Below, piece after piece: positions 1,751-53,323 of a DNA stretch of 64,000 nucleotides. The DNA lies in IMG/VR virus record IMGVR_UViG_3300005337_000004, positions 60,745-124,744 of that record; one strand, written 5' to 3'. The notes beneath the pieces were generated by a model. That model searched no databases, was not told the DNA's origin, and saw nothing but the letters and a program-made list of their open reading frames with translations. A program made the position numbers and the translations under genes. Positions within the stretch are counted from its first letter, which is position 1. Each line of letters begins with the position of its first letter. Origin of the DNA: a virus (taxonomy: Duplodnaviria > Heunggongvirae > Uroviricota > Caudoviricetes).

Positions 1751-4700
1751 GTGGCGGCGATCAGCAATGAGATCGAAATTGTCGTCAAGGTCAAGGACCA
1801 GGCGACCGCTGAGATCGCGGCCATCGCGGCAAAGGCCCGTGCGGAGGCCCAAAGCGGCGGGAACGCCGGTGGCGCAGCCATCCAGGTCCCGATTGAGGGT
1901 GACGCTTCCAGGCTTGAGCGGGATCTTGCCTCGGCGCTCAAGGCCGACAAGGGCAGCCCGATCACGGTCCCGGTCGAGGCTGATGCCAGCGAACTCGAGC
2001 AGGACGTAAAGAACGACGTCGAACACGTCGCGCCCGAACCGATCAAGGCGCCGATCGAAGGCGACGCAGCCAAGCTCGAGGCTGAAGTTGCGGCCAAGAC
2101 CAAGGCGGTGAAGCCCAACCCGATCAAAGTCCCGGTCGAGGTCGACGCCGACAAGTTCGAGGCTGAACTCCTTGCATCCTTTGCAGAGGGCGAGAAGCAC
2201 GCCGAAGAAGCCAGCAAGGCGATGAACCAGTCGTTCACCGCGATGCAGACCGGGATACGAGCTCTGCGGGCGGCTTCCGAGGAACTCAAGCCAGCAGCTG
2301 AGGCCGCGGACGACTTCGAGACCGAGTTCCGCAAGGCGATGGACGAAGGCGCCCGGGTCTCCGAGGATGCCGACCGGGCGCTTCGGCAGTCTTTCACGTC
2401 GATGGAGTCCGGGTCACGGGCTCTACGAGCGGCGGTATCCGATCTTGAGCCGCCGCTCGACAATGCCGGGAAGAAGGCCGCTGAATCCAGCAACGGATTC
2501 AGTCTCGCATCTCTGAAGATGGCCGGGCTCATCGCCGGAGCACTTTCGCTCGCGCCGGCGCTGGCAGCCATCCCCGCAGTCACGGCCGCCGTGGTCGTCG
2601 GTGCCGGCGCGATGACGCTGGGTTTCGGCGGCGTGGTTTCGGCGCTGAAGGACTACGGCCAGCAGTCCACCGCAAGCGGCCAGTCCGGTGCGCAACTCGC
2701 ACAAACGGCATTCTCCAACGCGGTCGCTATCCGCAACGCGGAGCAGGCGATCACGGACGCGAAGAAGCAGGCCGCGAGGGCTGCGCAGTCCTCCGCGGAC
2801 CAGATCTACTCGGCACAGGAACGCGTCGCCCAGTCCGCATACAGCCTGCAGCAGGCCAACCAGACCCTCACCGACTCTGAGAAGTCGTTGATGGACGCAC
2901 AGAAGGCCTTGACCCAGGCGCAGCTGGACGCGGCGAACCAGCAGAAGGATCTGAACAACAGCGCCGCGGACGCGAACATCGCAGTCCAGCAGGCCGAGCT
3001 GAATCTCACACAGGCCCGCGAGAAGCTCGCACAGACCACGAGCAGCAGCCTGTCGACGGACGACCAGAAGAAGCAGGCCGCGCTCGATCTGGCGTCCGCC
3101 CAGCAGGCACTGATTGATGCGCAGCAGCACCAGGTTGAGGCGCAGCAACAGGCCGACGCGGCTAACAAATCGGGCATCGACGGCATGCAGGCTGTCGTCT
3201 CGGCGCAGAACGCCGTACAGAAGGCCACCGAAGGTGTCGCCTCAGCGCAGCACGGCGTGAAGGACGCGGCACTGGCGCAGAAGGACGCGCAAACCGGCCT
3301 CGCTCGCGCAGTGCAGGCCGCGGCGCAGCAGCAGGCAGATTCGGCCGAGGCTGTCCAAAAGGCTGTCCAAAACCTCAAGGACACGCAAACGGAGCAGGCG
3401 CTGGCTGCTGCAGCGGCAGCGTCGACCGGTGGCGCGGCGGTTAACAAGTTCGCGCAGGATATGGCCAATTTAACGCCCGCCGGCCGTGCTTTTGTTAATC
3501 AGTTGCTGTCCATGAAGGGCGGCTTCGCGCAGCTGAAGGACACGGCTCAGACATCGATCCTGCCGGGTTTCATGCCGCTGCTGGCCGGGATCAGTGCTGC
3601 GATGCCCGGGATCAACACCGCGATCGGGCAGATGGGCAAGCTGATTGGCGGCGTTGCGACGCAGTTCGGGCAGTTGCTTCAGGACCCTGCGTTCCGCGGC
3701 AAGTTGGGTCAGATCTTCGACGACGGGCTGAAGGCGGCGCAGATCTTCTCCAGCGGCGTTGTGCCGATGGTCCAGGCCGTCGTAGATGCGGTACAGAATG
3801 CCGGCCCGATCGTGGAGGGGCTGGCCGGCGGATTTAAGGCGTTGATGACGTCCGGCATCCCGTCGCTTCTGCAGAACCTGGTAACCAGCGGTCAGGGAGC
3901 GGGGACGCTGTTTCAAAGCTTGGGGACGTTGATCTCCAACCTGGCCGGCCCGGTCGGCACTATCGCTGGCGCGCTTGCAACAGCACTGGCGCCAGCGGCT
4001 CAGGTTTTGGCGTCGCCGCAGGTTGCGCAGGCGTTGCAGTCGGTCGGCGCATCCCTTGCCAAGATCGTCATCACTTTGTCGCCGGTGATTACGATGCTTG
4101 CGCAGGGTCTCGCGGGGGCTCTGATGCTTGTGGCGCCGCTGCTGCAGTCTGTTGCCGACTTCATCCAGCGCAATCAGGCATGGCTAGTGCCGTTGGTGAA
4201 GGTTCTTACCCTGGCAGCCCTTGCCTTTCTGGCCCTGCAGAGCCCAGTCGTGCTGATCACGGGCGCGCTGATCGGAGTGGCGCTCGGAGTCAAGTACGTG
4301 TGGGACCACTTCGATGCCTTCCTCGGGTTCGTGAAGACGTGGTGGCCGGAACTGCTCGCACCGTTCACTCTCGGAACGTCCCTGATCATCGGCCACTGGA
4401 ACGACATCGTCGGCTTCGTCAAGCTCCTGCCGGGGCGCCTGCTGTCGGCGGGCGGCCACATGTGGGACTGGATCAAGGACAAGATCAACGATGCCTACGG
4501 ATGGGTGGGCCAGCAAGCCGATAGCCTGGTCAGGCTGGTCGAGGGCCTGCCTGGGCGCGCGGCCAGGGCTGGCTCGGGGCTTTGGGCCTGGGTGAAGCAG
4601 GAATTTCTCGTCGCCCTTAACGGCATCGCCGGGGCCTGGAACTCCTTGCACTTCTCGACGCCGAGCTTCCACATCCCGATCCCGTTCACTGACGGCATCA

Positions 4701-5061: not shown

Positions 5062-5577
5062 GTGATCACCATCCATCGGTATAAGACGTTCAACTCGCCC
5101 ATGGTGACCACTGCGGCGCCCACGCCAGTCACTACGGGCACGACCATCAAAACAATGCTTCAGTTGGCGACGCCGTCAACACGGCAGTGCCAACTCATTT
5201 CGTGGGGCTATTCCATGTCGGCCGTGCCCGGGTCAACTGGTGGCGTCATTGAACTCATCCAGACCGACGTTGCCGCGACCGTCACCGCACACGTGGCATC
5301 GGGCGTTGTGCCGCTGGACCCAAATGCACCAGCATCACTGATGACCCTGGGAACATCAGCGACCGGCTATACCGCCACGGCTGAAAACTCGACGACGGCC
5401 ACGCGCCTACTCGATTTCGATCAGATTCCACCGACGGCGGGTACGGTGCCAACCACGTTCGACTACCAATGGGTACTCGACGAACGCCCCATCATTGCAG
5501 TGTCAAAGTTCCTTCGCGTCAGGGTGACATTTGCGGCGGCCGTGAACATGACGTGCTGGCTCTGCTGGGACGAATAA
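5062..5577 (+). CDS. hypothetical Thr-rich protein (within lower-GC insertion)
   Basis: 171-aa ORF. Local GC is about 55% against about 68% in the flanks. No recognisable domain. Confidence 0.3.
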   Translation: MITIHRYKTFNSPMVTTAAPTPVTTGTTIKTMLQLATPSTRQCQLISWGYSMSAVPGSTGGVIELIQTDVAATVTAHVASGVVPLDPNAPASLMTLGTSATGYTATAENSTTATRLLDFDQIPPTAGTVPTTFDYQWVLDERPIIAVSKFLRVRVTFAAAVNMTCWLCWDE

Positions 5578-5599
5578 TCTGATAGCCACCTGCTAGGCT

Positions 5600-6244
5600 A
5601 TGTTCATGGCCGTCCGCATTGGCGAGGAGTACGAACGTTGGACCGTTGTCGAGATCATCTCCAGCAAAGTAGCGAGATGTCGATGTGACTGTGGCACCGA
5701 ACGGTCCGTGCGTGTTGGCAACCTACGCCAGGGCAAATCGCGATCTTGCGGATGCCTTCAACGTAACGTAGCCATCGCACCCGGGGACCGCTTTGGCCGC
5801 CTGACCGTACTTGATACCCCCGCCAGATCGGCAATCAAGTGCCGATGCGATTGTGGCACTGAAATCAACGCCAAGGCTATTCACCTGGTGGCGAAGGCGG
5901 TGCTCTCCTGCGGGTGCCTCCGGCGTGAAACTACTAGCAGCAGAGGGAAAAAGAACCGCACCCACGGCCTTTCAAGTCACGAGCTGTATGGCACCTGGAC
6001 GCGCATGGTTGCCCGTTGCACCAATCCAACCAGTCGGGACTACCACTGCTACGGCGGTCGCGGCATACAGGTGTACGGGCCATGGCTTCAGGTTGCGGTG
6101 TTCATCCCAGAAATTGTTTCCCTCATCGGAGAGCGCCCTAAGGGCCTGACCCTCGACCGCATCGACGTCAACGGCAACTACGAGCCGGGAAACGTGCGGT
6201 GGGCAACACGGCTCGAGCAGAGCCAAAACCGGCGCCCGAGGTAG
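5600..6244 (+). CDS. HNH_3-family homing-endonuclease-like protein with repeated CxCDCGTE zinc-ribbon units
   Basis: The C-terminus has ...DRIDVNGNYEPGNVRWATRLEQSQNRR, which matches the HNH_3 signature (DHIDGN...NLRWvT..eN) but with Arg in place of His. It is preceded by a YGGRGIQV element. Two CRCDCGTE repeats are present. The segment has lower GC. Confidence 0.55.
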   Translation: MFMAVRIGEEYERWTVVEIISSKVARCRCDCGTERSVRVGNLRQGKSRSCGCLQRNVAIAPGDRFGRLTVLDTPARSAIKCRCDCGTEINAKAIHLVAKAVLSCGCLRRETTSSRGKKNRTHGLSSHELYGTWTRMVARCTNPTSRDYHCYGGRGIQVYGPWLQVAVFIPEIVSLIGERPKGLTLDRIDVNGNYEPGNVRWATRLEQSQNRRPR

Positions 6245-8569: not shown

Positions 8570-9055
8570 TTGGGCATCCCTTTCGCCGCAGGTCAGCGCA
8601 TCCTGGCGTCAGATCTGAACCTGGCAACGCAGCAGGCGGCATGGACTTCGTACACGCCAGCATGGACGTCCAACGGCACGGCTCCCGCGCTCGGCAACGG
8701 CACGGTCGTCGGCTACTACGCAAAGGTCGGGCGCCTGGTCACCGCCAAGATTGAAATGAACTCAGGGTCGACGACCACCTTCGGTACCGGCTACTACTCG
8801 TGGTCGCTGCCGTTCACCGCGGCGGTAACCAGCGTCCCGACGAACCAGTTCGCACACTCGGGATCGATAGCCCTGTCGACTTCTGGCTCGGCCGTTTTCT
8901 ACACATCCACGGCTTTCATCAGTCAAGGTTCGCCGGCGGTCGTCAATGGCCTGGTTAACGGCTCTGGCAACTTCCTTGGCGCTACGAATCCGGCGACGTT
9001 CTCCGGCTCGGGGGTGCAGTTCTGCATCACCATCACCTACGAATCGACGTCCTAA
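8570..9055 (+). CDS. minor tail protein
   Basis: 161-aa Ser/Thr/Gly-rich ORF in the tail operon. Its stop overlaps the next start (TAATG). Confidence 0.4.
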   Translation: MGIPFAAGQRILASDLNLATQQAAWTSYTPAWTSNGTAPALGNGTVVGYYAKVGRLVTAKIEMNSGSTTTFGTGYYSWSLPFTAAVTSVPTNQFAHSGSIALSTSGSAVFYTSTAFISQGSPAVVNGLVNGSGNFLGATNPATFSGSGVQFCITITYESTS

Positions 9056-10242
9056 TGCATCGACGCTTGGTCCGCGCACTGGCTACTGTCCTGCTGCTGC
9101 TTGGCGTTGCCGCGCCCGGGCCGCCAAGCACCGTGCGCCTTGCGACGCCGACGACGACCTCGACGGTCTCCGGCTGGACTTCGACGTGGAACTCGGCGCT
9201 CGGCTACGCGCCGGCCGTCGGCGGCTGGAATAACCAGACGCTAAGGATGGTCATCAGGACAAGCCTTGGCGGCTCAGAGCTTCGGCTGCATCTCTCGAAC
9301 CGTTTCGCGTCGAGTCCGGCGGTCATCGGCCACGTCACCATCGGCACGCAGATGAACGGCGGCAGCACGCAGGAGACTGTCCCGCTGGATGTGACCTTCG
9401 GCGGCTCGACGGCGCTCACGCTCGGCTCCGGCGCCTCCGCAGTGTCGGACCCGATCCTGCTTGCGACCGCCCCGGCCACGCGCCTACTGGTGAGTATTTA
9501 CGTGCCGCCCGGCGCGAACATGGTCACGTCGCGGCATGACGTCGCCGAGGAGACGAACTTCAACTCGAACGGCGGCGACGCGAGCACCGCGCAGTACTAC
9601 CCGACCAGCAACACGTTCGGGTTCTACGCCCTCCTTGACGGCTTGGATGTCCCGGCCGCCGCGCCTTCAACGGTCGTGGCGATCGGCGACTCCATCACCG
9701 ACGGCCTGCACACCGACTCCGACACCGACACCCGCTGGCCGGACTACCTTGCCGCGCGCGCGGCAGCGGCCGGGCTGGCCGTAACCGACCAGGGCATCAG
9801 TGGGTCCGAGGTCACCGTCGACCAGAGCTTCGCGCTGTCCGAGCTTGACCGCTGGCAGACGGACGTCCTTAGTCAGCCGGGCGTCTGCGCAGTCATCGAC
9901 GCGGGCGGGATCAACGATCTGCGCAGTGGGGTGTCCGCGGCAACGCTAATCGCCGCGAAGCAGAGGCTCATCGCCGAGTCTCACGCGGCAGGCCTGCGGT
10001 ACTACCTAACGACCCTGACCTCGGATGCGGGCTCTACCGGCAGCAGCGGCACCGAGGCCGCACAGTGGGCCGTCTTCAATCAGTGGGTGCGTGGAGGTGC
10101 CACGGGCGCCGATGGTTACTTCGACTTCGACGCAGCGGTAGACGCCGGGGGTGCGCTGAAAGCGGTTTACGACTTCGGCGATCATCTGCATCCGAACTCG
10201 GCGGGCGCAGCGATGCTCGCCAACGTTGCGACGGGATTTTAA
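9055..10242 (+). CDS. secreted SGNH/GDSL-family hydrolase (esterase/lipase), tail-module associated
   Basis: N-terminal signal peptide (MHRRLVRALATVLLLLGVAAPG). GDS block at VVAIGDSITDG and a C-terminal DHLHPN catalytic His block. This is the last + gene of the tail operon. Confidence 0.65.
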   Translation: MHRRLVRALATVLLLLGVAAPGPPSTVRLATPTTTSTVSGWTSTWNSALGYAPAVGGWNNQTLRMVIRTSLGGSELRLHLSNRFASSPAVIGHVTIGTQMNGGSTQETVPLDVTFGGSTALTLGSGASAVSDPILLATAPATRLLVSIYVPPGANMVTSRHDVAEETNFNSNGGDASTAQYYPTSNTFGFYALLDGLDVPAAAPSTVVAIGDSITDGLHTDSDTDTRWPDYLAARAAAAGLAVTDQGISGSEVTVDQSFALSELDRWQTDVLSQPGVCAVIDAGGINDLRSGVSAATLIAAKQRLIAESHAAGLRYYLTTLTSDAGSTGSSGTEAAQWAVFNQWVRGGATGADGYFDFDAAVDAGGALKAVYDFGDHLHPNSAGAAMLANVATGF

Positions 10243-11131: not shown

Positions 11132-11568
11132 CCAGTCGCACCTGGGTGGCACCCGCCGTCTTCGGCGCCTTCGACGGGCTTACCTCGTCACTCGGTGTAC
11201 TACTTGCCCTCGCCGGCCAGCCGCACCTTGTGCTGCCGACCGCCGTTGGCGTTGGCTCCGCGGAGATGGTCGGCATGGCGGCCGGCCAGTGGCAGTCCGA
11301 CAGTGAGGATGGGCCGGGCGCCGCGGTTGTCATCGGCGTGGCTACCGGCGCCGGTTGCGTACTACCTGCCGTACCGTTTGCGGTCGTGCCGCCAACGGCT
11401 GCGGCAATCGCTTCAGCCATCCTGGTGCTGGCGGTGACCGCGGCGATAGCCCGGTCGCGCGCGGATCGCGGCCGGGTCCGCGCCGCCGTCGAGTCCTACG
11501 CCATCCTGGCCGCAACAGCCGTGGTCGTGCTGCTCGTGCACCTGCTCACACCGGGCGGTGGTGCATGA
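11128..11568 (+). CDS. membrane protein, holin candidate
   Basis: The GTG start overlaps the upstream stop (GTGA). Hydrophobic segments throughout, with a FGAFDGLTS motif. It lies directly upstream of the endolysin. Confidence 0.4.
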   Translation: MTSRTWVAPAVFGAFDGLTSSLGVLLALAGQPHLVLPTAVGVGSAEMVGMAAGQWQSDSEDGPGAAVVIGVATGAGCVLPAVPFAVVPPTAAAIASAILVLAVTAAIARSRADRGRVRAAVESYAILAATAVVVLLVHLLTPGGGA

Positions 11569-11867
11569 CCTGGCTGACGCACATCCTCGGGCTCGACAAC
11601 GCGAGCGGCGTGCCGTACTTGGCGTGGTCCGGAGTGGGCGGCGACCTTGGATATCTGGCAGTCGTCGGAGCCCTTGTCGCGCACTACAAGCGGCACACCT
11701 GCCACGTGAACAGCCCGCGGTTCTGCTGGCGCCCCGGCACCCATTCGGTCGAAGGCACCCCCTTCCGCGCGTGCCGCCGTCACCACCCCACGGTGCCGGA
11801 CCAAATCTCCGCAGCTCACATCGCCAAAGCCCACGCCGAACAGGCGGCAAGGAGTGCCGAGCAGTGA
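11565..11867 (+). CDS. small membrane protein with C-terminal Cys/His cluster, holin candidate
   Basis: ATGA overlap with the upstream gene. N-terminal transmembrane helices (LAWSGVGGDLGYLAVVGALVA) and a CHVNSPRFCW...CRRHH cluster. Confidence 0.4.
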   Translation: MTWLTHILGLDNASGVPYLAWSGVGGDLGYLAVVGALVAHYKRHTCHVNSPRFCWRPGTHSVEGTPFRACRRHHPTVPDQISAAHIAKAHAEQAARSAEQ

Positions 11868-12799
11868 CGATCTTCTTCCCGGATATCTCCTCCTACGAAT
11901 CTGGCCTGACGATCCAGCCCGGCACCGTTGCGGTCATTGCGAAGGCCACGGAGGGCACGTACTACCGGGACGCCGAGTACTCAAATTTCGAACAGCAGGC
12001 GGCGAAGGTCGGCGCGATCTTCTCGGCCTACCACTTTCTCAAGGCTGGCAACGCCTCAGCGCAGGCCGACTACTGCCACGCGATGGTGGGCTCGACGCCG
12101 GTCATGCTGGACGTGGAAACCGAGGGCGCGTCGAAGCCGACGGTCACCGACGTCGCGACATTCATCGCCCGCATGCACGTACTCGGCGGCAGGGTGTGGG
12201 GCGCTTACATCCCGAAGTGGTACTGGCAGCAGGTCGGCGGCGACCTGGCGTCGCTCGGCGTGGCCGTGGTCTCGTCCAGCTACGCCGCGTACTCCGACAC
12301 CGGCCCCGGCTGGGCCCCTTACGGCGGCATCACCCCGACGGCCTGGCAGTACACCGACAAGCAGCCCTACGGCGGCCAGACCATGGACTTCAACGCCTAC
12401 CGCGGCACCGTAGCCGAGCTGGCCGCGCTCATCAACGGCACCGGCACTCCCTCCCCTTCAACCTCTTCTGGAGCCGACATGGCCCTGACGGACGTCGTTC
12501 ATTTCTCCCCCGAGTTGGTGAAGCGCTACTCGGAACTGGCTGGCGAGGGCTTCGGCACTTCAGCCCCGCTGGAAACGGTGCTGGGCTGGATGGCCGGCCG
12601 CGTCGCCCACCTCGCCGACACGCAGGACGCCGTCGTCGAGGCCGCGGTGGCGCCGGTCAAAGCTGAGCTGGACCTGGTCAAGTCGGCGATCGCCGCACTC
12701 CCGGACCTGATCAACACGCACGTCGCGAACGGCGCGACCGCCGAGCAGATCGCTTCTGCGGTGATGCACCACCTATCCGCCGACGCCGCAAACGGCTAA
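11864..12799 (+). CDS. endolysin, GH25 muramidase domain plus C-terminal domain
   Basis: GTG start with an AAGGAG RBS 10 nt upstream. N-terminal FFPDISSYE...VAVIAKATEGTYYRD...AYHF is typical of GH25 lysozymes. Thr/Ser linker, then a C-terminal domain. Confidence 0.8.
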   Translation: MTIFFPDISSYESGLTIQPGTVAVIAKATEGTYYRDAEYSNFEQQAAKVGAIFSAYHFLKAGNASAQADYCHAMVGSTPVMLDVETEGASKPTVTDVATFIARMHVLGGRVWGAYIPKWYWQQVGGDLASLGVAVVSSSYAAYSDTGPGWAPYGGITPTAWQYTDKQPYGGQTMDFNAYRGTVAELAALINGTGTPSPSTSSGADMALTDVVHFSPELVKRYSELAGEGFGTSAPLETVLGWMAGRVAHLADTQDAVVEAAVAPVKAELDLVKSAIAALPDLINTHVANGATAEQIASAVMHHLSADAANG

Positions 12800-13317: not shown

Positions 13318-13538
13318 GGGAGAGAGTCGTGCCGTTTCGTCTGCACCGTCACCACTCAAACCTCGCCGCAGCCGAGCGCCGACGCCTCGCGGCGCCGCTG
13401 GAGCGGGTCCAGGAGCGGCTTGCAGACCTCGGTACCGACCTCGACACCCTCGCAGCCGATGTCAGCAGCGTCGCGTCGCGGATGCGGCAGATGGCCGAGC
13501 AGGTCGCGAACCAGACAGGAGGTGCTGGCGATGAGTGA
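13314..13538 (+). CDS. hypothetical small protein
   Basis: 74-aa ORF with overlapping stop/start on both sides. No domain recognised. Confidence 0.25.
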   Translation: MRERVVPFRLHRHHSNLAAAERRRLAAPLERVQERLADLGTDLDTLAADVSSVASRMRQMAEQVANQTGGAGDE

Positions 13539-14022
13539 CGACGAGCACGAGGCGGCTACCGACGCCGAGAGGCTGGCTGCGGCTGCCGGCCTGGTGTCGC
13601 ACAGCACCGAATCGCTGGTCGACCAGATCGCTGGGCTGCGGAAGGATTTCCGTACCGCCCGCGAACAGGCCGAGGCCGACCTTGAAGCGGCGAAGCAGCA
13701 GGCGGCTAAGGACGTCGCCACCGAGCGGCGGGACCGGCGCCGCGCCGGCTGGAAGTTTGCGCTCGTCGTCTTCGTTGACGTGGTGCTGTCTGCGGCGTCG
13801 CTGGGGCTGTATGTGGACCAGCGCAGCACCGAGACCAAGCTGCACGAGACCCAGGTCGCGGTGTTGTGCCCGCTATACAGGTTGTTCGCACAGGCGATTG
13901 CCGCGCCGCGGGTTGGGGAGACGGCACAACAGAAGGCGACACGCCTGGCCGCGGCCGGCCCGATCCGCAACGGATACATCAAGCTCGGCTGTTCCCCGCC
14001 TCTTCCCCCGCCTCCGCGCTGA
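13531..14022 (+). CDS. membrane protein
   Basis: ATG with an AGGAGG RBS at 13516-13521. Central transmembrane segment (FALVVFVDVVLSAASLGLYV). Last gene before the terminator. Confidence 0.45.
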   Translation: MSDDEHEAATDAERLAAAAGLVSHSTESLVDQIAGLRKDFRTAREQAEADLEAAKQQAAKDVATERRDRRRAGWKFALVVFVDVVLSAASLGLYVDQRSTETKLHETQVAVLCPLYRLFAQAIAAPRVGETAQQKATRLAAAGPIRNGYIKLGCSPPLPPPPR

Positions 14023-14047
14023 TCCCGCATGGCCCCAACCGGCCCCC

Positions 14048-14089
14048 TCACCTGGTTCCCGCCGGGTGAGGGGGCCGGTTTTCGCGTTC
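14048..14089. terminator. bidirectional intrinsic terminator hairpin
   Basis: Perfect 15-bp inverted repeat ACCGGCCCCCTCACC / GGTGAGGGGGCCGGT with a 12-nt loop, followed by TTTTCGCG. It sits between a convergent + gene (ends 14022) and a - gene (ends 14091). Confidence 0.6.
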
Positions 14090-14090
14090 C

Positions 14091-14588
14091 CTACCGCAGG
14101 TGCTCGGCCAGCGTGTCGCGCAGGCCTTCCCAGGGGTACGGGTCGTAGCCGGAGCCGTGCGGCAGGAACCTTACCTCGGCCAGACGGCGCACGTGCTGGG
14201 CAAACGCCGGATGCCTCCGCAGCACGTCTTTCGCCCATACGTGCGCCACGACCGGCACATTGGTTCCGATCTGCTCGTTCAACAGCCCGACCGCCGCATT
14301 GTCGTTGATCAGCAACGCCCACTTCGCCAACGTGTTCACCGTCAGCGGCACCACCGCCACCGCATCCGGCGGCGGCACGGCAGACCTCGGCTCACCCGCA
14401 CGCCGGGACTCCACGCGCACCAGATGCCCGCTCGCCTCAGCAACCGCAGCCAGGTCAACAAACCCGGCGGTGGAGGCTGGGGTGCACGTCACCCACACAT
14501 CCCACCCAGCCTCACGCAGCACCCTCACACCCTCGTGCAGGCTCATAGCAGGCGGCGCGGCGCAGGCGACCAGATACAGGACAGGCAT
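14091..14588 (-). CDS. flavoprotein, HFCD family (CoaC/EpiD-like)
   Basis: 165 aa. Contains MPVLYLVACAAPPAMSLHEGVRVLREAGWDVWVTCTPAS, the flavin-binding fold of PPC-decarboxylase-like flavoproteins. Start ATG at 14586-14588 on the minus strand. Confidence 0.6.
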   Translation of the reverse strand: MPVLYLVACAAPPAMSLHEGVRVLREAGWDVWVTCTPASTAGFVDLAAVAEASGHLVRVESRRAGEPRSAVPPPDAVAVVPLTVNTLAKWALLINDNAAVGLLNEQIGTNVPVVAHVWAKDVLRRHPAFAQHVRRLAEVRFLPHGSGYDPYPWEGLRDTLAEHLR

Positions 14589-14666
14589 CCGCCCATCCTG
14601 CCGCACTGCCCGCGCCAGGGGTGCGCCAGGATCCCGAACTGCGACACGGCACCGATACTGAACAAC

Positions 14667-15848
14667 GTGACCCCCGAATCGGACAACCCCAGCGACGGAC
14701 GACGCGTTCGGCGCCTGCGACGACGCGCCGGACTCACCCAGGCCGAGTTCGCCTCCCACATGGGCCGCTCCCAAGCCTGGGTATCCGGCGTGGAAAACAG
14801 CCAGATCGCCCTGGACTCGGTCGAACTCATCAACCGCGCCGCCCGGGTGCTGCGAGTCGAACCCGGCGAGATCACCGGCAACCCGCGGCTGCTGCCCTCC
14901 CCGCTGGCCGAAAGAGCCCAGGCTGCGATCTGCGGAATCCGGCGTGTCGTACAGCGGTTCGACCTGCCACCTGACTGGCCCGTGGACCCGCGCCCCCAAT
15001 CAGGGTTGGCCGCATCCGTCGCACACCTGACCGCGCTGCGCCGGCGCGCCCGCTACGCCGACCTCGGCGAGCAAGTACCCGACGTCATTCGCGAAATCCA
15101 CGCCGCAGCAGCCCACGCCGACGGCACCACCGCCGAGGGCTTGTACGCGCTGCTGGCCATGGCCTACAAGGAAGCCGACGCCGTCGCCCACAACCTCGGC
15201 CACAACGACCTCGCCACCCTCACCGTCGAGCGGATCCGCTGGTCCGCCGACCGGGCGGCCAGCCCCGACATCGCAGCCATCGGCGACTACCTGCGGGTAC
15301 GGGACTTGTGGGCGAACCGGCTGTACGACGACGCACTGCTGGTCATCGAGCAGCGCCTGAACGCCGCGGACATCGACGACACCGTTGCCGGGTCGCTGCT
15401 GCTGCGCGGCGCCATCACCGCGGCCCGCGGCGGATCAGCGGACACTGCGCGCACCTGGATGGAACAGGCCCACCGGCTCCTCGACGACGGCGTCGGCCCG
15501 GACCGGTACGAATTGACGTTCACCGCCGCGAACATCGCCATCCATGACGTCGCCATCGCCGTCGAAACCTTCGACAGCTCCCGCGCGCTCGCCCTCGATG
15601 CCGCCACCTGCGCACCGCAGACCGCGCCCCCGTCGCGGCACGCCCGGCACCGCCTTGATGTCGCACGGGCCTGCGTCTACCACGGCGCCTACGAACGCGC
15701 CGTCACCGAGATCGAAACCGCCGAACGCCTCGCACCCCTGATGATCCGCAACAGCCCGCACGTGCCGCAGGTCATGCGGACCCTGCTGGAGCGCCGCGGC
15801 GGCAAGGAGAGGGTACGGCGTCTGGCCGCACGGCTGAACCTTGGCTGA
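14667..15848 (+). CDS. XRE-family HTH transcriptional regulator with C-terminal helical domain (WhiJ-like)
   Basis: HTH at LTQAEFASHMGRSQAWVSGVENS near the N-terminus (GTG start; the ORF is open further upstream). Long C-terminal domain. It is followed by a GHKL ATP-binding partner, as in Streptomyces WhiJ/AbaA loci. Confidence 0.6.
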   Translation: MTPESDNPSDGRRVRRLRRRAGLTQAEFASHMGRSQAWVSGVENSQIALDSVELINRAARVLRVEPGEITGNPRLLPSPLAERAQAAICGIRRVVQRFDLPPDWPVDPRPQSGLAASVAHLTALRRRARYADLGEQVPDVIREIHAAAAHADGTTAEGLYALLAMAYKEADAVAHNLGHNDLATLTVERIRWSADRAASPDIAAIGDYLRVRDLWANRLYDDALLVIEQRLNAADIDDTVAGSLLLRGAITAARGGSADTARTWMEQAHRLLDDGVGPDRYELTFTAANIAIHDVAIAVETFDSSRALALDAATCAPQTAPPSRHARHRLDVARACVYHGAYERAVTEIETAERLAPLMIRNSPHVPQVMRTLLERRGGKERVRRLAARLNLG

Positions 15849-16365
15849 GCACGACATCAGCCCGGTTGATATCGGCAGGTCAACCGCGCTCTACGGTGCG
15901 GAAATGAACACGCCGACGCAGATCACGACCAGATACGGCCATGTTGAAGGCGCCTTCAACGGCGATCGTGCGGGCATTGACGCTGCCTACGCGTTCGTGC
16001 GCAGCGCCATCGGGGACACACCTGGCGCCGAACTCGTCGGCGATGTGCTGCTGATCCTCGCCGGCAACGCGGTGCTCCACTCCGATACCCGCCTCGGCGG
16101 GCAGTTCCGGGTCCAGGTCGCATCCCTGCGCGGACACTGGAAGGTGCGGATCGACGACGACGGACACGCGACCGGGTCTCCGCACCTTGTCGGCTCCGAA
16201 CGCGGCGAGCCGCTGCACGGGCTGGCCGCGCTGAACGCCGCCGGGGTGCAATGGACGCTTCCCGGGGATGGCGCGATCCTCGCCGAGATCGACTGCCCGC
16301 TGCCGGATGAGACCCCGGCGGACCTGTCGGTGCCGGCCAAGCGCGCGGCTGCCTCGATCCTCTGA
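15841..16365 (+). CDS. GHKL ATP-binding protein (anti-sigma-factor-like Ser kinase fold)
   Basis: 174 aa with HATPase-like motifs (…VGDVLLILAGNAVLHS…, …DDDGHATGSP…, …GLAALNAAGVQWTL…). Translationally coupled to the upstream XRE regulator. Confidence 0.55.
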   Translation: MAEHDISPVDIGRSTALYGAEMNTPTQITTRYGHVEGAFNGDRAGIDAAYAFVRSAIGDTPGAELVGDVLLILAGNAVLHSDTRLGGQFRVQVASLRGHWKVRIDDDGHATGSPHLVGSERGEPLHGLAALNAAGVQWTLPGDGAILAEIDCPLPDETPADLSVPAKRAAASIL

Positions 16366-16382
16366 TGGGACCGGGAACGCGC

Positions 16383-17189
16383 TCACATCGCCCTCACCGC
16401 CGCGGTCATCTCCGCATCCCGGGCGATCCCGAACTCCGCCACCGGCTCCAGCGCCTCCATCAACGCCAGGCCGCAGTCAGTCAGCGCATAGGAGGTGCGC
16501 CGGCCCACCTCCGCCGGGATCTGGACCACCAGGCCCATGCGCTGCAGCATGTCCAGACGGTCCGCGAGGATCGAATCCACCAGGTGACTGGACACCACAT
16601 CGGGGCTGGTGTCAGCAGCCGCATTGACGACCCCGATGATCCGGTACGGGCGCAGCGGTCCGCGAGTCAACGCGGCCAGAGTCGCAAAAGTCCACTTCGG
16701 GCGCAGCACCACCCCGAACAACACCGCCGTCGCACGGCGCCGCAGCCTCTCCTCCGCCACCTCGTCACTGTCCCCGGGGCTGCGCATCGGTATCGGCTCG
16801 CGGAGGTCCAGGTGCTGCTGCATCCGGGCACACCGCACCAGCCAGCGGTAGCGCTCCCGGCCGTAGGCGGTCGCATCGGTAAGGCTGTCCAGCATCTCGT
16901 ACCCGAGCGCGGTCAGCGAGTACTCGCGGCGCCGGCCGACCAGCGGCCCGGGTTCGATCAGTCCGCCGCGAGTGAGGGTCCCCACGTGCCGGGTGACGGA
17001 CTTGGGATAGACCGTGTGCGGGCCGAAGACGGGTACGTTCACTGAGCGTGTTGCTTTGAGAACGCCGACGATCTCACTCGGTGACATCGGCTGCGCTCTC
17101 AGTAACACCAGAACGGCGTAAAACCATCGGTCCCGCAGCCAGTCCACAGTCATGCCGCAGCCGCGAAAGTGCTCACAGTCCCACAGCAA
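16383..17189 (-). CDS. transcriptional regulator with two tandem winged-helix (HxlR/PadR-like) domains
   Basis: Two repeats of a Cys-containing helix followed by a wHTH (CEHFRGCG...GGLIE and ...YALTDCGLALMEALEP). Divergent from the 17456 gene, with palindromes in the shared leader. Confidence 0.5.
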   Translation of the reverse strand: MLWDCEHFRGCGMTVDWLRDRWFYAVLVLLRAQPMSPSEIVGVLKATRSVNVPVFGPHTVYPKSVTRHVGTLTRGGLIEPGPLVGRRREYSLTALGYEMLDSLTDATAYGRERYRWLVRCARMQQHLDLREPIPMRSPGDSDEVAEERLRRRATAVLFGVVLRPKWTFATLAALTRGPLRPYRIIGVVNAAADTSPDVVSSHLVDSILADRLDMLQRMGLVVQIPAEVGRRTSYALTDCGLALMEALEPVAEFGIARDAEMTAAVRAM

Positions 17190-17455
17190 CGCCTCGCTCC
17201 CCTTCCCCCCGAGTCTGGCCGAAAAGCGTTATGCGCGCTGTACGACGAGCTACACCCCTCGCTAGTTGCTCAAAGCTTTGATTCATCACCCGTATGGGTG
17301 ACACGGGTGCCCCAACCTGGCCCTACTGGCAAACGATCACTTCTTTTTTTGTCCGTGGTTTCGGTCTGGATCACGAGGTAAAACGCTCGTAAAGTGCTGA
17401 GTCTCAGGGTGACCTAGCCACGGGCCATCAACACCGCGACGGAAGCGCTGACCTC

Positions 17456-17926
17456 ATGAGCCCAGCTCAACCAGCCCCCGAACCGACCCGGACCAAGAGC
17501 CCACAAGGCCGGGCACGCCGTCGGTCAAGGGCTGCGGAATCCGAATCCCCGCTGTCACACTTACGGCGGCGCTTCATCCGCGCCGCGTGCATCGCCGGCG
17601 GCGGCTATCTGGCGGTCATCGCCATCGACGTCGTGTTCCCTTCGGCGCTTACGCTCAAGGAGACCATGGGCCTGGAATTCAGCATCGGGTTCCTGGGCGT
17701 ACTGCTGACGCTCGTTGCGATCGGACTGTGGTTCCTCACGCAAAACACCACCTACACCCTGTCGCTGCTGGACATGATCGACGCAGCCAATAACGCGGGC
17801 AACGTGGCGAAGTCCAGAACGCCTGCCACCTTCCCAATCCCACGGCAAGGCAGTGCGGCGGCAACTCCGATACCGATCGAGCGGGGGCATCAGGTGCGGC
17901 AACAGCGAGCGCATCGGGCCGGGTGA
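17456..17926 (+). CDS. membrane protein (cargo)
   Basis: Arg-rich N-terminus, then two or three transmembrane helices (ACIAGGGYLAVIAIDVVF, FSIGFLGVLLTLVAIGLWFL). Confidence 0.4.
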   Translation: MSPAQPAPEPTRTKSPQGRARRRSRAAESESPLSHLRRRFIRAACIAGGGYLAVIAIDVVFPSALTLKETMGLEFSIGFLGVLLTLVAIGLWFLTQNTTYTLSLLDMIDAANNAGNVAKSRTPATFPIPRQGSAAATPIPIERGHQVRQQRAHRAG

Positions 17927-18002
17927 TTCAGAGGGTACGTGCACGGCCCGTGCGCAAGAAGATGATCACCACGTGTGCACGAATAGTGCACGTGATCAAG
18001 AA

Positions 18003-18034
18003 GAGAGGCGGTGCGCATCGGCGCACCGCCTCTC
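18003..18034. terminator. terminator-like perfect hairpin
   Basis: GAGAGGCGGTGCGC-ATCG-GCGCACCGCCTCTC, a 14-bp stem with a 4-nt loop. It lies between the cargo membrane gene and attP. Confidence 0.5.
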
Positions 18035-18049
18035 ACCTGCCGTTTAACG

Positions 18050-18100
18050 TGGGCGATACTGGGATTGAACCAGTGACCTCTTCCGTGTCAGGGAAGCGCG
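18050..18100 (-). other. attP core: 3' portion of a tRNA-Val(GAC) gene (anticodon arm to acceptor 3' end), not a complete tRNA
   Basis: The reverse complement reads CTTCC-CTGACAC-GGAAG (anticodon loop with GAC), AGGTC, ACTGG-TTCAATC-CCAGT (T-arm), ATCGCCC-A. The 5' acceptor and D-arm are absent. It lies directly 3' of the integrase gene. Confidence 0.6.
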
Positions 18101-18227
18101 ATGCCCAGGTCAGAACGTTGAGGCTGGCCAGAGCGCTGCATCTTTGTCCACGGATGTCCACTCGTGTCCAGCGCTGTCAACCTGGCTCTGTGCATGAATC
18201 GTGCACGACTTCGATCACCTTGAGTCA

Positions 18228-19400
18228 TCATGTTCTTGATGCCCGTGCATCCACTTCCGACATGCTCGGGCGCTGAAGCGCTGCCAAGCCGGTCTCGCCC
18301 CAGAGGTCAAGAATGGCCTGATGCTTGGTCGGATCAAGATGGGCGTACCGCTGAGTAGTTGAGTACTTCTCGTGCCCGAGAAGGTCCTGCACCCGGTACA
18401 GGTCGATCCCGCCCATCACCAGCCACGAAGCCGCCGTGTGCCGCATGTCGTTCGGGCTGCCCCGCCGCACCTTGTGTGCTGCGATTTCACACAGCACAGG
18501 TTCACCCTGGTCGTCGAACTCTCGGCAGTCGCACATTCGCGCCGCCGTCAGCGCGGGGTTGAAGACGCGGTTGCGGAAGTTGTTGTCGTTGAGGAAGCCG
18601 CCGCCCGGGGCAGTGAACACCATGTCCGACCGATCCTTGCCGTAGATCTGTCGCTCAAAGCGCTCCACCAGGAACGGCGCGATTGGAAGCGTGCGGTAGG
18701 ACTTCACGGTCTTCGGGTAGTCCCGAAGCCTCCCGTCGACCGCGACCCGGACGATGTGGGCCAGGCGAAGCTTCAGGTCGATGCAGTCAACCTTCAGGCC
18801 GGCGAGCTCCTCAATTCGAGGACCGACGTGCATGTCGAACTCCACCAGCAGTTTGTACGGCTTCCCGGTTGCCGCAACGATGGCGGTGGCTTCCTCGTGG
18901 CTCCAGAAGAACGGTGGCTTGCGAGGTGCCTGCGGTACGGCGAGGCTGCGTGCGGGGTTCGTGATGATGCGGCCCGTGTCGACGGCGTCGCCAAGCATCT
19001 TGGACATCAGCTTGGCGATGTTGATGATGGTCGGGATCCCAACTGCCGGGTCCTTAACGAGATCTTTCACCCACCCCTTGATGTCCTCGCGGCCAACCTC
19101 CAGCTCTTCGAGGGTCCACTCGCCATAGCGGGGCTCAACCCAAACGCGCCAGGTCGAGTCCTCGCGGGCCTCGGTTAGGTCGGCCACGACACGACCTTTC
19201 AGCCACTCCTCGTGCCAGGCCGACAGCTTGATGCGTCCGCGGCGGGGGTCTCGGAAGCGCCCGTTCTTCTTGGCCGCTTCCTGATCGTTAGCCCACCGCT
19301 CAACCACAGCCCTGTCGGGGTCGGTGTAGGGAATCCGCTCACCCTTAACGTAGACAAGCGCCTGCCAGTTGCCCGAGGGAAGTTGCCGGATGGTTGCCAC
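18228..19400 (-). CDS. int: tyrosine integrase
   Basis: N-terminal MATIRQLPSGNWQALVYVKG. C-terminal catalytic region has ...RHTAASWLV...HEKYSTTQRYAHL (R-H-R-Y). Adjacent to attP. Confidence 0.9.
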   Translation of the reverse strand: MATIRQLPSGNWQALVYVKGERIPYTDPDRAVVERWANDQEAAKKNGRFRDPRRGRIKLSAWHEEWLKGRVVADLTEAREDSTWRVWVEPRYGEWTLEELEVGREDIKGWVKDLVKDPAVGIPTIINIAKLMSKMLGDAVDTGRIITNPARSLAVPQAPRKPPFFWSHEEATAIVAATGKPYKLLVEFDMHVGPRIEELAGLKVDCIDLKLRLAHIVRVAVDGRLRDYPKTVKSYRTLPIAPFLVERFERQIYGKDRSDMVFTAPGGGFLNDNNFRNRVFNPALTAARMCDCREFDDQGEPVLCEIAAHKVRRGSPNDMRHTAASWLVMGGIDLYRVQDLLGHEKYSTTQRYAHLDPTKHQAILDLWGETGLAALQRPSMSEVDARASRT

Positions 19401-19474
19401 TGCGGCCCCCTGTGGTTGTCGATGACCTGCTTTAACGGTAGCGGCAGCATCAGACGGAGTCAGGGCCTTCGCTA

Positions 19475-19942
19475 CTACGAGGCTTGATCCTCTTCATTCT
19501 CGATACTGCGAAAAAGGGCACCGTCCTCCCGAGCACCTTCCATCGCCGCCCGCTCGTTTCGGCGGTACCGCTCAAGAATGGTCTTGCGTACCCTCAGGCT
19601 GAGATCGGTCCAGCTCATAATCTCCTGCGCGCGAGGGTCGGAGATCACTTCATCCGCTTCGCCAACGCCGAGCAGCTCTAGCAAGCCGTGGTGACCAGCC
19701 GCACGCATGGCTTCAACCGGCGGCCGGCCAAAGAAGAGCGCAGCTCGACCGGCAGTGTCGGCGTCCGGAGCCTTCGTTGCCCCATCGCGCCACTTGCTAA
19801 TGGCGGAGGGTGTTACTTTGGCTGCTTTTGCAAGGTCTTGCTGCTTGGCTTCGGGATGTGCCGCGAACTGGGCATTCACCCAAGCCGGCCAGGTGGCTTT
19901 GCTGTCCGGCGCGCCGCCGCTGCTTGTCATGCGCCATTCCAT
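19475..19942 (-). CDS. CI-like repressor (XRE HTH)
   Basis: HTH at QQDLAKAAKVTPSAISKWRDG. It is divergent from cro-like genes. The ORF is open to 20041, but the palindromic operator at 19979-19992 argues for an internal start (M34 or M38, about 19930-19942). Confidence 0.6.
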   Translation of the reverse strand: MEWRMTSSGGAPDSKATWPAWVNAQFAAHPEAKQQDLAKAAKVTPSAISKWRDGATKAPDADTAGRAALFFGRPPVEAMRAAGHHGLLELLGVGEADEVISDPRAQEIMSWTDLSLRVRKTILERYRRNERAAMEGAREDGALFRSIENEEDQAS

Positions 19943-19978
19943 TCGGTCGCGTGTCGTAAGCACCCTATCCCCTAAAAG

Positions 19979-20206
19979 TTGCCTGTAGGCAATTTTCCTT
20001 GCCGACACTCCGCGCCATGCCCTACGCAACCTAGGCGTCACGGCGCGTGATGACCAGTATCAGGCCACGAATTTCCTGCTCGCTCGGGAGCATCCGTACC
20101 CTGCGCGCCCCATTTTCAAGAGTGGTTGTGATCATGACTACGTGGCTGTAGTGTCGTGCACGACAGAAAAGGTTGCCTGTAGGACACGCGACCGAAGGCC
20201 TGTAGA
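19979..20206. promoter_or_regulatory. operator sites TTGCCTGTAGG(CAA) in the repressor/cro divergent region
   Basis: TTGCCTGTAGGCAA (19979-19992, palindromic), TTGCCTGTAGG (20173-20183) and GGCCTGTAGA (20197-20206). They flank the divergent starts of the repressor (-) and cro-like (+, 20221) genes. Confidence 0.45.
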
Positions 20207-43437: not shown

Positions 43438-43818
43438 GTGATCATGACCATCGCGAACATCCGCATCGAAGGACCGATCGGCGGACGTGTGCCGCGCACC
43501 GATACGCCGGGCTTGGCCAAGCCCGGCCGGTTTGTCGGTGCCTACGAATCCGACCCGAACTGGCGCAACCACGCAGCCTGCCTCGGTACTGACCCCGAAA
43601 CCTGGTTCCCGCTGAATGATGCCGAGTACGGGCCCGCGCTGTTGCAGGCCGAGGACGCCAAGGCCATCTGCAATAACCGCTGCCCGGTGCGGGATGCCTG
43701 TCTGGAGTGGGCCCTGGCGACCAATCAGGGTTTCGGCGTGTGGGGCGGCCTGACCGTGAAAGAGCGGGCGAACCTGAAGCGCAGCCAGAGCCGTAAGACT
43801 CGGAGCACGGCAGCATGA
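43438..43818 (+). CDS. whiB: WhiB-family transcription factor
   Basis: Four Cys (C...C..C.....C) and a GVWGG turn (GFGVWGGLTVKER). Confidence 0.8.
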   Translation: MIMTIANIRIEGPIGGRVPRTDTPGLAKPGRFVGAYESDPNWRNHAACLGTDPETWFPLNDAEYGPALLQAEDAKAICNNRCPVRDACLEWALATNQGFGVWGGLTVKERANLKRSQSRKTRSTAA

Positions 43819-44306
43819 CCGCCCCGAAAGGACTTCGCGGCCTGGCGTTGACCGCCCGCGAGAAGCAGGTGGTGGCGCTGGTGGCGGGCGGCATGACGAA
43901 CGCAGCGATCGCCGCGGAGCTTGGCCTGTTGCCGCTGACGGTGAAGAACCACATGGCCCGTGTTGCCGCGAAGTACGGCATCGGGGACCGTGCCGGGGTT
44001 GTCGGGCTGGCGATCCGGCGCGGCGACCTGCCGGTGTCGGTGACCGGTCCAGTCCCGGCTGGTTTCGACGAGGGCCTGTTCGACGTGCTGGTGCGGATCG
44101 CCCGCGGTATGTCCAACCGGGAGATCGGCCTGGAGTTGCACCTAAGCACCGACTCGGTGAAGTCGCGGGTGCGGCGGCTGTTTGTGGTGCTGGGCGTGTC
44201 CGGCCGTGAGGAGGCAGTGGCGGCGGGTGTGGCGTGCGGGGCGCTGCGCTTGGTGCCAGTGCGGCGTCCGGTGCCGGCGCAGCGGCGAGAGCGGGTAGCG
44301 GCGTGA
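43815..44306 (+). CDS. transcriptional regulator with two tandem LuxR/GerE-type HTH domains
   Basis: LTAREKQVVALVAGGMTNAAIAAELGLLPLTVKNHMARV, and a second copy LFDVLVRIARGMSNREIGLELHLSTDSVKSRVRR. Confidence 0.6.
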   Translation: MTAPKGLRGLALTAREKQVVALVAGGMTNAAIAAELGLLPLTVKNHMARVAAKYGIGDRAGVVGLAIRRGDLPVSVTGPVPAGFDEGLFDVLVRIARGMSNREIGLELHLSTDSVKSRVRRLFVVLGVSGREEAVAAGVACGALRLVPVRRPVPAQRRERVAA

Positions 44307-52745: not shown

Positions 52746-52943
52746 ATGAAGCTAAACGACAAGACCGCCCAGAAGTTGGGCCTGCTGGCCATCGAGGTTC
52801 GGCACCGCGCCAACGATTACGACACGTTCTCCTCTGACGAGGCGTGGCAGACCCGTGCCGGCCAGCTTGACCGGGCTGCGGATCTACTAAGCGAGGCTGC
52901 GCGCATCTTGGATACCGCGCTGGTGAAGGAAGGCGAGAGCTGA
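52746..52943 (+). CDS. small hypothetical protein
   Basis: 65-aa ORF. Confidence 0.35.
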   Translation: MKLNDKTAQKLGLLAIEVRHRANDYDTFSSDEAWQTRAGQLDRAADLLSEAARILDTALVKEGES

Positions 52944-53323
52944 TGGCCACCTACCGCGCCGACCTGACCGGCGATCATCACCGCCTCATCGCGCACCTGT
53001 TGCCCGGCGATCGCCTGATCCTCACCTGGTCGGCTGGCGAGAAGGCCATCGACGCCGACCCGGACTTGCCGTGGCTCGAGGTGTTCGACACCGACCCGAT
53101 CCCGCGGATTTGCCGCTACGGCACCGCTGCGGGGCTGGCGCAGAACACCCGGGTTCGGCAGCGTCCGCCGGTCACGGAGGCGGCGCGTGCGGTCCGGGCT
53201 GGCGGGGTCGTATACGTAACGTGCGAGCGGCGGCAGGACACCGACCGGTTCGGGCAGCCGTTCGGGCCGGCGGTGCTAATGCCGTCCGGGCATGTGCTGG
53301 TTGAGGCGGAGGTGAGCGTCTGA
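52943..53323 (+). CDS. hypothetical protein
   Basis: 126-aa ORF. Confidence 0.4.
   Translation: MATYRADLTGDHHRLIAHLLPGDRLILTWSAGEKAIDADPDLPWLEVFDTDPIPRICRYGTAAGLAQNTRVRQRPPVTEAARAVRAGGVVYVTCERRQDTDRFGQPFGPAVLMPSGHVLVEAEVSV

Follow-up and report, generated by a model that had tools for sequence, protein, structure and literature searches.

The window analysed here is a 64-kb stretch of a tailed-phage record (IMG/VR IMGVR_UViG_3300005337_000004, positions 60,745 to 124,744), and coordinates are those of the window unless a contig is named. The subject is a group of five genes, termed the island, that lies between the lysis genes and the integrase gene. The last gene of the late operon stops at 14022 and is followed by a hairpin terminator (14037-14080; 19-bp arms that are 95% complementary, a 6-nt loop, then TTTTCG), identified by repeat search and direct reading. 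The hairpin closes the late/lysis operon, as a first-pass annotation of this DNA had stated, and on the opposite strand it sits 3' of the first island gene, which encodes a flavoprotein. Beyond it come five genes of mixed polarity, an attP-like fragment of a tRNA-Val and the gene of a tyrosine integrase. The mixed polarity had also been described, and each island gene was backed by frame analysis of GC content at third codon positions (GC3).

In order, the island encodes an HFCD-superfamily flavoprotein-like protein of 165 aa (14091-14588, minus strand); an XRE-family helix-turn-helix (HTH) regulator of 393 aa with a GTG start and a tetratricopeptide-repeat (TPR)-like superhelical C-terminal domain (14667-15848, plus strand); a divergent HATPase_c_2 protein of 153 aa that resembles GHKL-type anti-sigma kinases (15904-16365, plus strand); a tandem winged-helix (wHTH), HxlR-like protein of 256-268 aa, convergent with the GHKL-like gene (16383-17189, minus strand; start at TTG 17189 or ATG 17153); and a small 156-aa protein that contains two hydrophobic segments and whose gene diverges from the wHTH gene (17456-17926, plus strand). 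The flavoprotein/XRE intergenic region spans 78 bp and the wHTH/156-aa intergenic region 266 bp. Two long open reading frames (ORFs) annotated earlier, 14091-14999 (minus) and 14100-15848 (plus), overlap each other, and were replaced by the first two gene models above. It is tentatively proposed, with somewhat less than even confidence, that these genes form a lineage-conserved regulatory island at the prophage end, in which a host-derived XRE-TPR regulator drives a non-catalytic anti-sigma-like protein, beside a separate, fast-evolving wHTH/membrane protein pair.

The comparison drew on related phage contigs (L001-L012, L018 and L035), Catenulispora chromosomal loci (L017 and L022-L030) and a further chromosomal contig (L033, assembly GCA_041261445.1). 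On every contig that bears the GHKL-like gene (L001-L012), wherever the contig extends far enough, the order flavoprotein (minus), XRE (plus), GHKL (plus), wHTH (minus), small gene (plus) was kept. Where flanks are present the island lies between lysis genes and integrase, and it was also found in one contig with a serine integrase/recombinase. Only L018 replaces the genes after the XRE gene. The earlier label 'cargo island' is thus misleading, because a gene order that is constant in all related contigs with the GHKL-like gene is not variable prophage cargo. The GHKL-like gene was found only in contigs with phage content or in contigs too short to tell, never at a host chromosomal locus, and it follows the XRE gene wherever the upstream region is present.

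Homologs among catalogued phages were few. In IMG/VR a single contig carries the GHKL-like family, at 99% identity, and is probably the same phage. Megablast of 13500-19500 against deposited phages returned nothing relevant, tblastn of the GHKL-like, flavoprotein and wHTH proteins against phages gave no match, and a literature search yielded no paper on WhiJ-like, XRE-TPR or STAS modules carried by actinophages.

Divergence within the island was uneven. Between the window and L001, identity was 69% for the flavoprotein, 83% for the XRE regulator and 71% for the GHKL-like protein, against 31% and 28% for the wHTH and small proteins; homologs of the small protein at the same position in L006 and L009 are 32% and 40% identical to it. 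The island was therefore split into a slow sub-module A (flavoprotein, XRE, GHKL) and a fast sub-module B (wHTH and the small protein).

The regulator and its divergent flavoprotein

The flavoprotein (minus)/XRE (plus) pair was present in the related phage contigs that reach far enough and in all ten Catenulisporales chromosomal loci found. In nine Catenulispora genomes or metagenome-assembled genomes (MAGs) the pair is 48-54% identical to the phage pair; it was also recovered from Actinospica, and in one Actinoallomurus MAG the XRE gene alone was found. The gene neighbourhood is the same at all nine Catenulispora loci (two-component system, ThiBP, the pair, Hexapep, DUF4193, DUF3093, 4HBT, dut). 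As the pair is fixed in Catenulispora chromosomes, the phage pair, judged from sequence, is a diverged copy of a host core chromosomal pair. This agrees with the first-pass view that the island genes resemble host regulatory circuitry and not phage structural or replication functions, and for this temperate phage of soil actinomycetes the homolog distribution points to a probable host among the Catenulisporales, not a Streptomyces. A Streptomyces-type origin was rejected: the search for chromosomal relatives of the regulator turned them up in Catenulispora, Actinospica and Actinoallomurus only, and none in Streptomyces. No description of the host regulator/flavoprotein pair was found in the literature.

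The flavoprotein call of the first-pass annotation held. The protein matches Pfam Flavoprotein (PF02441) at 25.7 bits (cutoff 22.7), and a profile of the family (14 members) retrieved from the PDB CoaBC (E 1.9e-8), two TvaF-like decarboxylases (1.3e-7), EpiD (1.2e-5) and CypD. The homology to HFCD flavoproteins (EpiD, CoaC/Dfp, CypD, TvaF-like) extends over about 135 residues and includes the PxTxNT(L)xKxAxGIxD-type segment. An active-site His and the PxMNxxMW motif define the HFCD Cys decarboxylases, and the phage family, unlike these enzymes, has neither. In the alignment the His column falls on Glu or Val of 'PGEPDV', a segment without His in 13/14 family members, and the PAM(N/H)xxMW column reads 'VWAKxxLR' ('VWAKxxLxxHPAF'). 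The protein is thus predicted to have the HFCD fold and is probably not a Cys decarboxylase.

These residues bear on the proposal that the island is an auxiliary metabolic locus, with the flavoprotein as payload (an FMN enzyme) and the XRE regulator merely its controller. Superfamily homology fits such a role, as does the strict retention of the two genes as a divergent unit across phage and host. The absence of the catalytic His and of the substrate motif argues against it, and the phage-specific addition of a GHKL-like gene to the regulator operon would be left unexplained, so this proposal is considered very unlikely.

As annotated earlier, the regulator combines an XRE-type HTH with a long C-terminal domain (HTH_31, 48-49 bits; 49.2 bits for residues 11-68 of the protein). 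The C-terminal 312 residues (82-393) had no Pfam match, DUF5753 included, at E up to 10. An AlphaFold2 (AF2) model with a mean predicted local distance difference test (pLDDT) of 90.9 consisted of the HTH and an all-helical repeat domain; the latter resembles MalT domain III, AimR and Rap, with MalT domain III the best structural match.

The first-pass annotation had called this protein a Streptomyces-type WhiJ-like regulator, a description that did not survive. WhiJ itself (SCO4543) is a 283-aa protein of HTH plus DUF5753, and WhiJ regulators are about 258-303 aa long (PMC10364602); WhiJ paralogs are normally paired with a DUF397 protein (PMC10364602, PMC10294661, PMC4255298). The WhiJ/AbaA/BldB loci (SCO4542-4544 and paralogs) are like the phage locus in that an XRE regulator stands beside a small antisigma-like protein of the HATPase_c type and the setting is that of mycelial actinomycetes. 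They differ in the regulator, which is about 280 aa with DUF5753 in the WhiJ loci and 393 aa with a TPR-like domain in the phage, and in the DUF397/BldB partner, which the phage lacks. DUF397 was not found in the island ORFs, nor was it among the matches listed (25 of 29 families in the first set) for 76 other window ORFs. A DUF397 motif regular expression run over all six frames, a weak test, returned nothing, and the gene calls of the related loci included none. The phage locus differs further in its GHKL-like protein, which has diverged beyond recognition by Pfam and no longer has the N-box Glu, and in its obligate divergent HFCD-like gene. Membership in the WhiJ family was rejected on length, on the missing DUF5753, on the TPR-like C-terminal domain and on the failure to find a DUF397/BldB partner; chromosomal relatives in Catenulisporales and one Actinoallomurus MAG also speak against the Streptomyces label. 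Of the domains named in the first pass, HTH_31, STAS and Flavoprotein were matched and DUF5753 was not, and HATPase was recovered only at profile and fold level, with no direct Pfam match.

Phage relatives of the regulator were found in PHROG. The regulator matches phrog_5823 over its full length (E 1.7e-60), a group of regulators from temperate Streptomyces phages that includes Chymera gp24, Ignacio gp25 and VWB gp56; in Chymera and Ignacio the gene is likewise flanked by the lysis genes and the integrase. Identity to these regulators is only 25-28%, however, and their phages have no flavoprotein, GHKL or tandem wHTH partners.

The divergent flavoprotein/XRE intergenic region holds a tandem direct repeat, GCGCCAGG-N3-GCGCCAGG (14612-14630, plus strand), which is a candidate operator. 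It occurs once in the window, with 0.05 occurrences expected by chance. The single GCGCCAGG 8-mer was not enriched across the window, and no further copies of the candidate operator were found there. GCGCCA...GCGCCAGG recurs between the flavoprotein and XRE genes of L001, L006 and L009. A tandem direct repeat at this place recalls WhiJ9, which binds direct repeats in its own intergenic region (PMC10294661). The -10-like hexamer GATACT (14654-14659, plus strand) lies 7 nt 5' of the GTG start of the XRE gene, and GATACTGA-N4-5-GTGACC is kept in the window, L001, L005, L006 and L009; this arrangement suggests a leaderless or near-leaderless XRE mRNA. The Catenulispora loci (L017 9372-11206, L022-L030) have conserved intergenic motifs of their own, GGGACATTCTGTCG and GGATGTTCCTCATTGA.

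The HTH plus TPR architecture is that of RRNPP/AimR-type receptors, and it was asked of the same evidence whether the regulator could be an AimR-like switch that senses a diffusible or metabolic signal, perhaps made or modified by the flavoprotein, for a lysis-lysogeny or induction decision. The architecture is present, with sequence identity to AimR/RRNPP proteins and MalT domain III of only 7-13%. The likeness at the TPR level is generic, MalT domain III being the best structural match. A gene for a small secreted propeptide is absent beside the XRE gene, the next gene being the 153-aa GHKL-like gene, whose product has no evident signal sequence; at the Catenulispora loci the XRE gene is followed by a gap of anywhere between 18 and about 360 nt, in which no ORF slot is conserved. 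In a scan of the window the candidate operator was absent near CI/cro or early promoters and was confined to the flavoprotein/XRE intergenic region. This gene pair also forms a core chromosomal locus with no phage context, the flavoprotein lacks the HFCD catalytic residues, the setting is actinobacterial and not Firmicute, and the HFCD-like and GHKL-like partners differ from aimP and aimX. A signal-sensing switch of this kind is therefore judged quite improbable.

The GHKL-like and STAS proteins

The assignment of the 153-aa protein rested on homologs, an AF2 model, Foldseek and a family profile. No direct match was obtained in Pfam, NCBIfam, PHROG, PADLOC or PDB, and a structure model and family profile were therefore needed. 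Fourteen homologs or homolog clusters were found among 5.8 billion sequences. The AF2 model, built on the family alignment, had a pLDDT of 78.7 and a predicted template modelling (pTM) score of 0.80, with the lid region below pLDDT 50. The best Foldseek matches were SpoIIAB, RsbW and UsfX (E 4e-5, probability 1.0), and nearly all of the top 20 were of these kinds (E 4e-5 to 1e-2). Searched against 1.8 billion representatives, the family profile retrieved carriers of Pfam HATPase_c_2 at E of about 1e-12. The anti-sigma-like GHKL call in the first-pass annotation is thus upheld, by a Bergerat fold of SpoIIAB/RsbW type in the model and by HATPase_c_2 in the profile search.

The gene start was placed at ATG 15904, 55 nt after the XRE stop, because 14/14 homologs (132-157 aa) align from that Met; the gap between the two genes is 52-59 nt in the related loci. 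This start replaces TTG 15841, and the two genes do not overlap. The translational coupling described earlier is not supported. The GHKL-like gene is probably co-transcribed with the XRE regulator.

The phage protein shares the Bergerat fold of the SpoIIAB/RsbW/UsfX kinases and keeps the N-box Asn and the G1 Asp. It differs from SpoIIAB/RsbW in three motifs. At the N-box, canonical 'SELAxNAIRHS' becomes 'LILAGNAVRHS' in the phage family, with Glu replaced by Ile and Asn55 invariant. At the G2 box, 'GRGL' becomes 'PLHGL', with the first Gly lost and the second kept. In the G1 box Asp84 and Asp85 are invariant, and the Gly after them, kept in the window protein, is replaced by Arg in several members and by Cys in the distant member P0062. 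A variable linker leads to an invariant C-terminal tail, DLSxPAKRA. The loss of the N-box Glu and of the first G2 Gly makes a kinase-driven partner switch doubtful, and the protein may be either a nucleotide-binding or a purely protein-binding pseudo-kinase.

The closest canonical HATPase_c_2 relative of the phage protein was found on L033 (1966-5626), near a 388-aa HTH-TPR regulator (TPR_10/TPR_12) and a resolvase fragment. An association of XRE-TPR regulators with small GHKL proteins may be wider in actinomycete genomes.

A STAS protein of 118 aa is encoded at 53323-53679 (plus strand). The first-pass annotation had noted it there, and the protein is a genuine member of the anti-sigma-antagonist type (Pfam STAS 57.7 bits, TIGR00377 63 bits, above cutoff) that keeps a phosphorylatable Ser. 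In its motif 'FIDSTGWG' the DS(T)G serine position is Ser in 10/12 family members, Thr in one and Pro in one. The gene is one of three small early genes whose start and stop codons overlap, 37 kb from the GHKL-like gene, and L035 has the same context. The flanking ORFs (52943-53323 and 53679-54092) had no HATPase match and gave no hhalign signal to the GHKL-like profile. STAS is essentially absent from deposited phage genomes, IMG/VR holds no close relative of this protein, and the few STAS homologs across phages lie on short contigs. A metagenome scan for STAS returned mostly generic bacterial genes and none on L001 or L004, contigs that are possibly outside that collection.

The first-pass annotation had suggested the STAS protein as the possible partner of the island protein. 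The corresponding hypothesis is a WhiJ/AbaA-type module in which the GHKL-like and STAS proteins form a self-contained partner-switching pair that redirects host sigma activity in lysogeny. The SpoIIAB/RsbW-type fold fits the hypothesis, as does a phage-encoded STAS protein that, like SpoIIAA/RsbV antagonists, has a phosphorylatable Ser, retained across most of its family; the rarity of STAS in deposited phages means that its presence is not routine. In L018, whose XRE regulator is 56% identical, a STAS gene even lies in the same island, three genes 3' of the XRE gene.

The details of L018 also count on the other side. There the XRE gene is followed by a 144-aa gene, a 138-aa gene, the STAS gene and an 86-aa gene, with no 153-aa GHKL-like gene, and the 138-aa STAS neighbour gave no GHKL signal in hmmsearch or hhalign. 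L018 ties STAS to the island by position, and suggests that STAS and GHKL-like genes are alternatives and not partners. Unlike SpoIIAB/SpoIIAA systems, the two phage genes of the window stand in separate transcription units far apart, and the position of STAS in an early array, also in L035, implies a different expression timing. The degenerate N- and G2 boxes make the phosphorylation step doubtful, DUF5753 and the DUF397 partner are absent, and no phage sigma factor was found in the window. The evidence gathered weakens the GHKL-STAS pairing somewhat, and the self-contained pair is regarded as unlikely.

A phage sigma factor was considered as a target and rejected, the only candidate being a tandem GerE/region-4-like HTH protein without a region 2 match. 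This protein of the GerE/LuxR type (163 aa; 43815-44306, plus strand; GerE 75 bits, Sigma70_r4_2 40 bits) lies among the early genes, and a WhiB-like gene is found near it, somewhere in 20-48 kb. Two further observations were made on the contigs with STAS genes. Inside its island, L018 encodes a PemK-type toxin and a small upstream gene (5138-5749, minus strand), and the early array of L035 that holds the STAS gene also contains an Acb5-family (anti-CBASS) gene (3330-3830, plus strand).

Proposed action of the island

Under the preferred reading, a conserved prophage-end island driven by a host-derived regulator, sub-module A is the divergent flavoprotein/XRE-TPR pair, extended in phages by the co-transcribed, degenerate GHKL-like gene. 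The regulator would bind the tandem GCGCCAGG repeats and so control the flavoprotein gene and its own operon, the GHKL-like gene included. Its TPR domain would take the input, for which a small ligand, the flavoprotein and the invariant C-terminal tail of the GHKL-like protein are candidates. The GHKL-like protein would act as a non-catalytic binder that sequesters a host sigma factor or a STAS-type antagonist belonging to the large partner-switching network of actinomycetes, and transcription in the lysogen would change as a result. In favour of such an action, interactions among streptomycete anti-sigma, antagonist and sigma proteins can be highly promiscuous (PMC4255298), and sporulation is blocked when an AbaA-type HATPase_c protein is overexpressed (PMC10294661). 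The phage STAS protein, encoded among the early genes, would more likely target anti-sigma kinases of the host in the course of infection than serve the island protein as a dedicated partner. Prophage interference with host gene regulation by way of the island is plausible on this evidence.

Sub-module B, by attP, would be expressed from the prophage and serve a different purpose, such as superinfection exclusion under a regulator of its own. That this regulator has two wHTH domains, as had been annotated, was borne out: Pfam HxlR (29.9 bits) matched in two stretches, PHROG matches fell in both halves, and PA1607 was matched in the PDB. The 156-aa protein, whose gene model was supported by its GC3 frame and which had no family match, is predicted from its hydrophobic segments to be probably membrane-spanning.

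The whole island could also be seen as a defence or superinfection-exclusion island that protects the lysogen from other phages. Its prophage-end position next to attP is that of the variable regions near the integrase that have this protective role in many actinophages, and the wHTH and membrane proteins evolve fast, as in an arms race. Anti-sigma-kinase-like and STAS proteins are moreover known to control immune operons, as CapK/CapS do (PMC13373217), and the likeness is that such proteins can act outside sigma-factor control, on mobile-element or immune operons. CapK, however, is a multidomain HTH-STAS-GHKL active kinase and CapS an adjacent STAS-wHTH repressor, whereas the phage GHKL-like and STAS proteins are single-domain and unlinked, and the former looks catalytically impaired. 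PADLOC matched only generic HTH models in the island; no recognisable effector (nuclease, NADase, pore former) was found apart from the small membrane protein. Sub-module A is slow-evolving and common to a host core locus, which is atypical of defence cargo. A defensive island is accordingly held to be improbable.

Several points weigh against the proposed regulatory island. The intergenic motifs of phage and host differ and a shared operator is not evident; cross-talk between the phage regulator and the regulon of the host is therefore not supported, and the operator role of the repeats is that of a candidate. The loss of catalytic residues was read from alignments alone, and nucleotide binding may persist. 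The sigma factor or STAS protein to which the GHKL-like protein would bind is a putative partner. Expression of the island in lysogeny was deduced from its position alone, and the host assignment from homolog distribution and not from an attB match. The PADLOC result neither backs nor excludes an exclusion role for sub-module B.

A more specific version was also considered, in which the regulator is an AimR-like HTH-TPR sensor taken from the host core locus. A partner protein, and not a secreted peptide, would provide the input: either the flavoprotein (as redox or metabolite sensor) or the pseudo-kinase tail, docked into the TPR groove. The output would be the non-catalytic anti-sigma-like protein, by which sigma-factor partner switching in the host would be rewired. 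This version is judged rather improbable. If it were true, the GHKL-like protein of this phage and the STAS protein of L018 would both be effectors directed at the host network, one replacing the other in the slot that the regulator drives, and the arrangement would represent a new type of prophage-to-host regulatory interface. It would also open a first route to the function of an actinobacterial regulator/flavoprotein pair that is so far uncharacterised.

In mycelial actinomycetes, development and antibiotic production are controlled by sigma factors, anti-sigma kinases and STAS antagonists that form large, cross-reacting networks, and by XRE regulators of largely unknown biochemistry. The regulatory island proposed here would offer a compact system for how prophages enter host sigma networks, and for what the Catenulispora chromosomal pair does. 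The GHKL-like family (14 clusters) and STAS are rare phage functions, and what is said here of function is drawn from sequence.

Neighbouring genes and other features of the window

Between the island and the integrase lies a truncated tRNA (18050-18106, minus strand) that comprises the anticodon arm (GAC, Val), the T arm and the acceptor 3' end, with no D arm. Its Rfam tRNA score was 25 bits (gathering score 29), the alignment was read directly, and ARAGORN called no tRNA at these positions. The fragment is likely the attP core, which implies integration into a host tRNA-Val gene. It is preceded by a perfect 14-bp hairpin (18003-18034), terminator-like, that lies 3' of both the integrase gene and the 156-aa gene. 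The tyrosine integrase has 390 aa (18228-19400, minus strand; Pfam Phage_integrase 70 bits). A 188-aa HTH_3 protein (19475-20041, minus strand; Pfam HTH_3 25.6 bits) follows in the same arrangement as in L001 and L004; divergent from the early genes and outside the island, it is likely a CI-type immunity repressor.

The remaining genes of the window are phage-like, and include a GH25 lysin, a GDSL lipase, DnaB, SSB, RusA, methylases, WhiB and ParB_N. The window has no terminal redundancy, and the genome is therefore larger than 64 kb; related contigs are about 125-128 kb.

In the tail-to-lysis region, which otherwise runs on the plus strand, a tRNA-Ala(CGC) gene was found on the minus strand (9538-9614). 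A GDSL lipase/esterase of 395 aa lies near the GH25 lysin (9055-10242 and 11558-12799, both plus strand), a pairing also present in L001 and L004. It recalls the LysB-type esterases of mycobacteriophages and is unexpected for a Catenulispora-type host.

Towards the end of the window, an SPFH/Band_7 domain protein (58608-59600, plus strand; 65 bits) is encoded among early/middle phage genes. A Ro60-like protein (60555-62207, plus strand; TROVE 51 bits and a weak VWA_2 match) follows, and 3' of its gene lies a homolog of the Thg1-like tRNA-His guanylyltransferases (62425-63321, plus strand; Thg1 76 bits, and Thg1C). The two genes suggest an RNA repair or quality-control pair in the phage genome.

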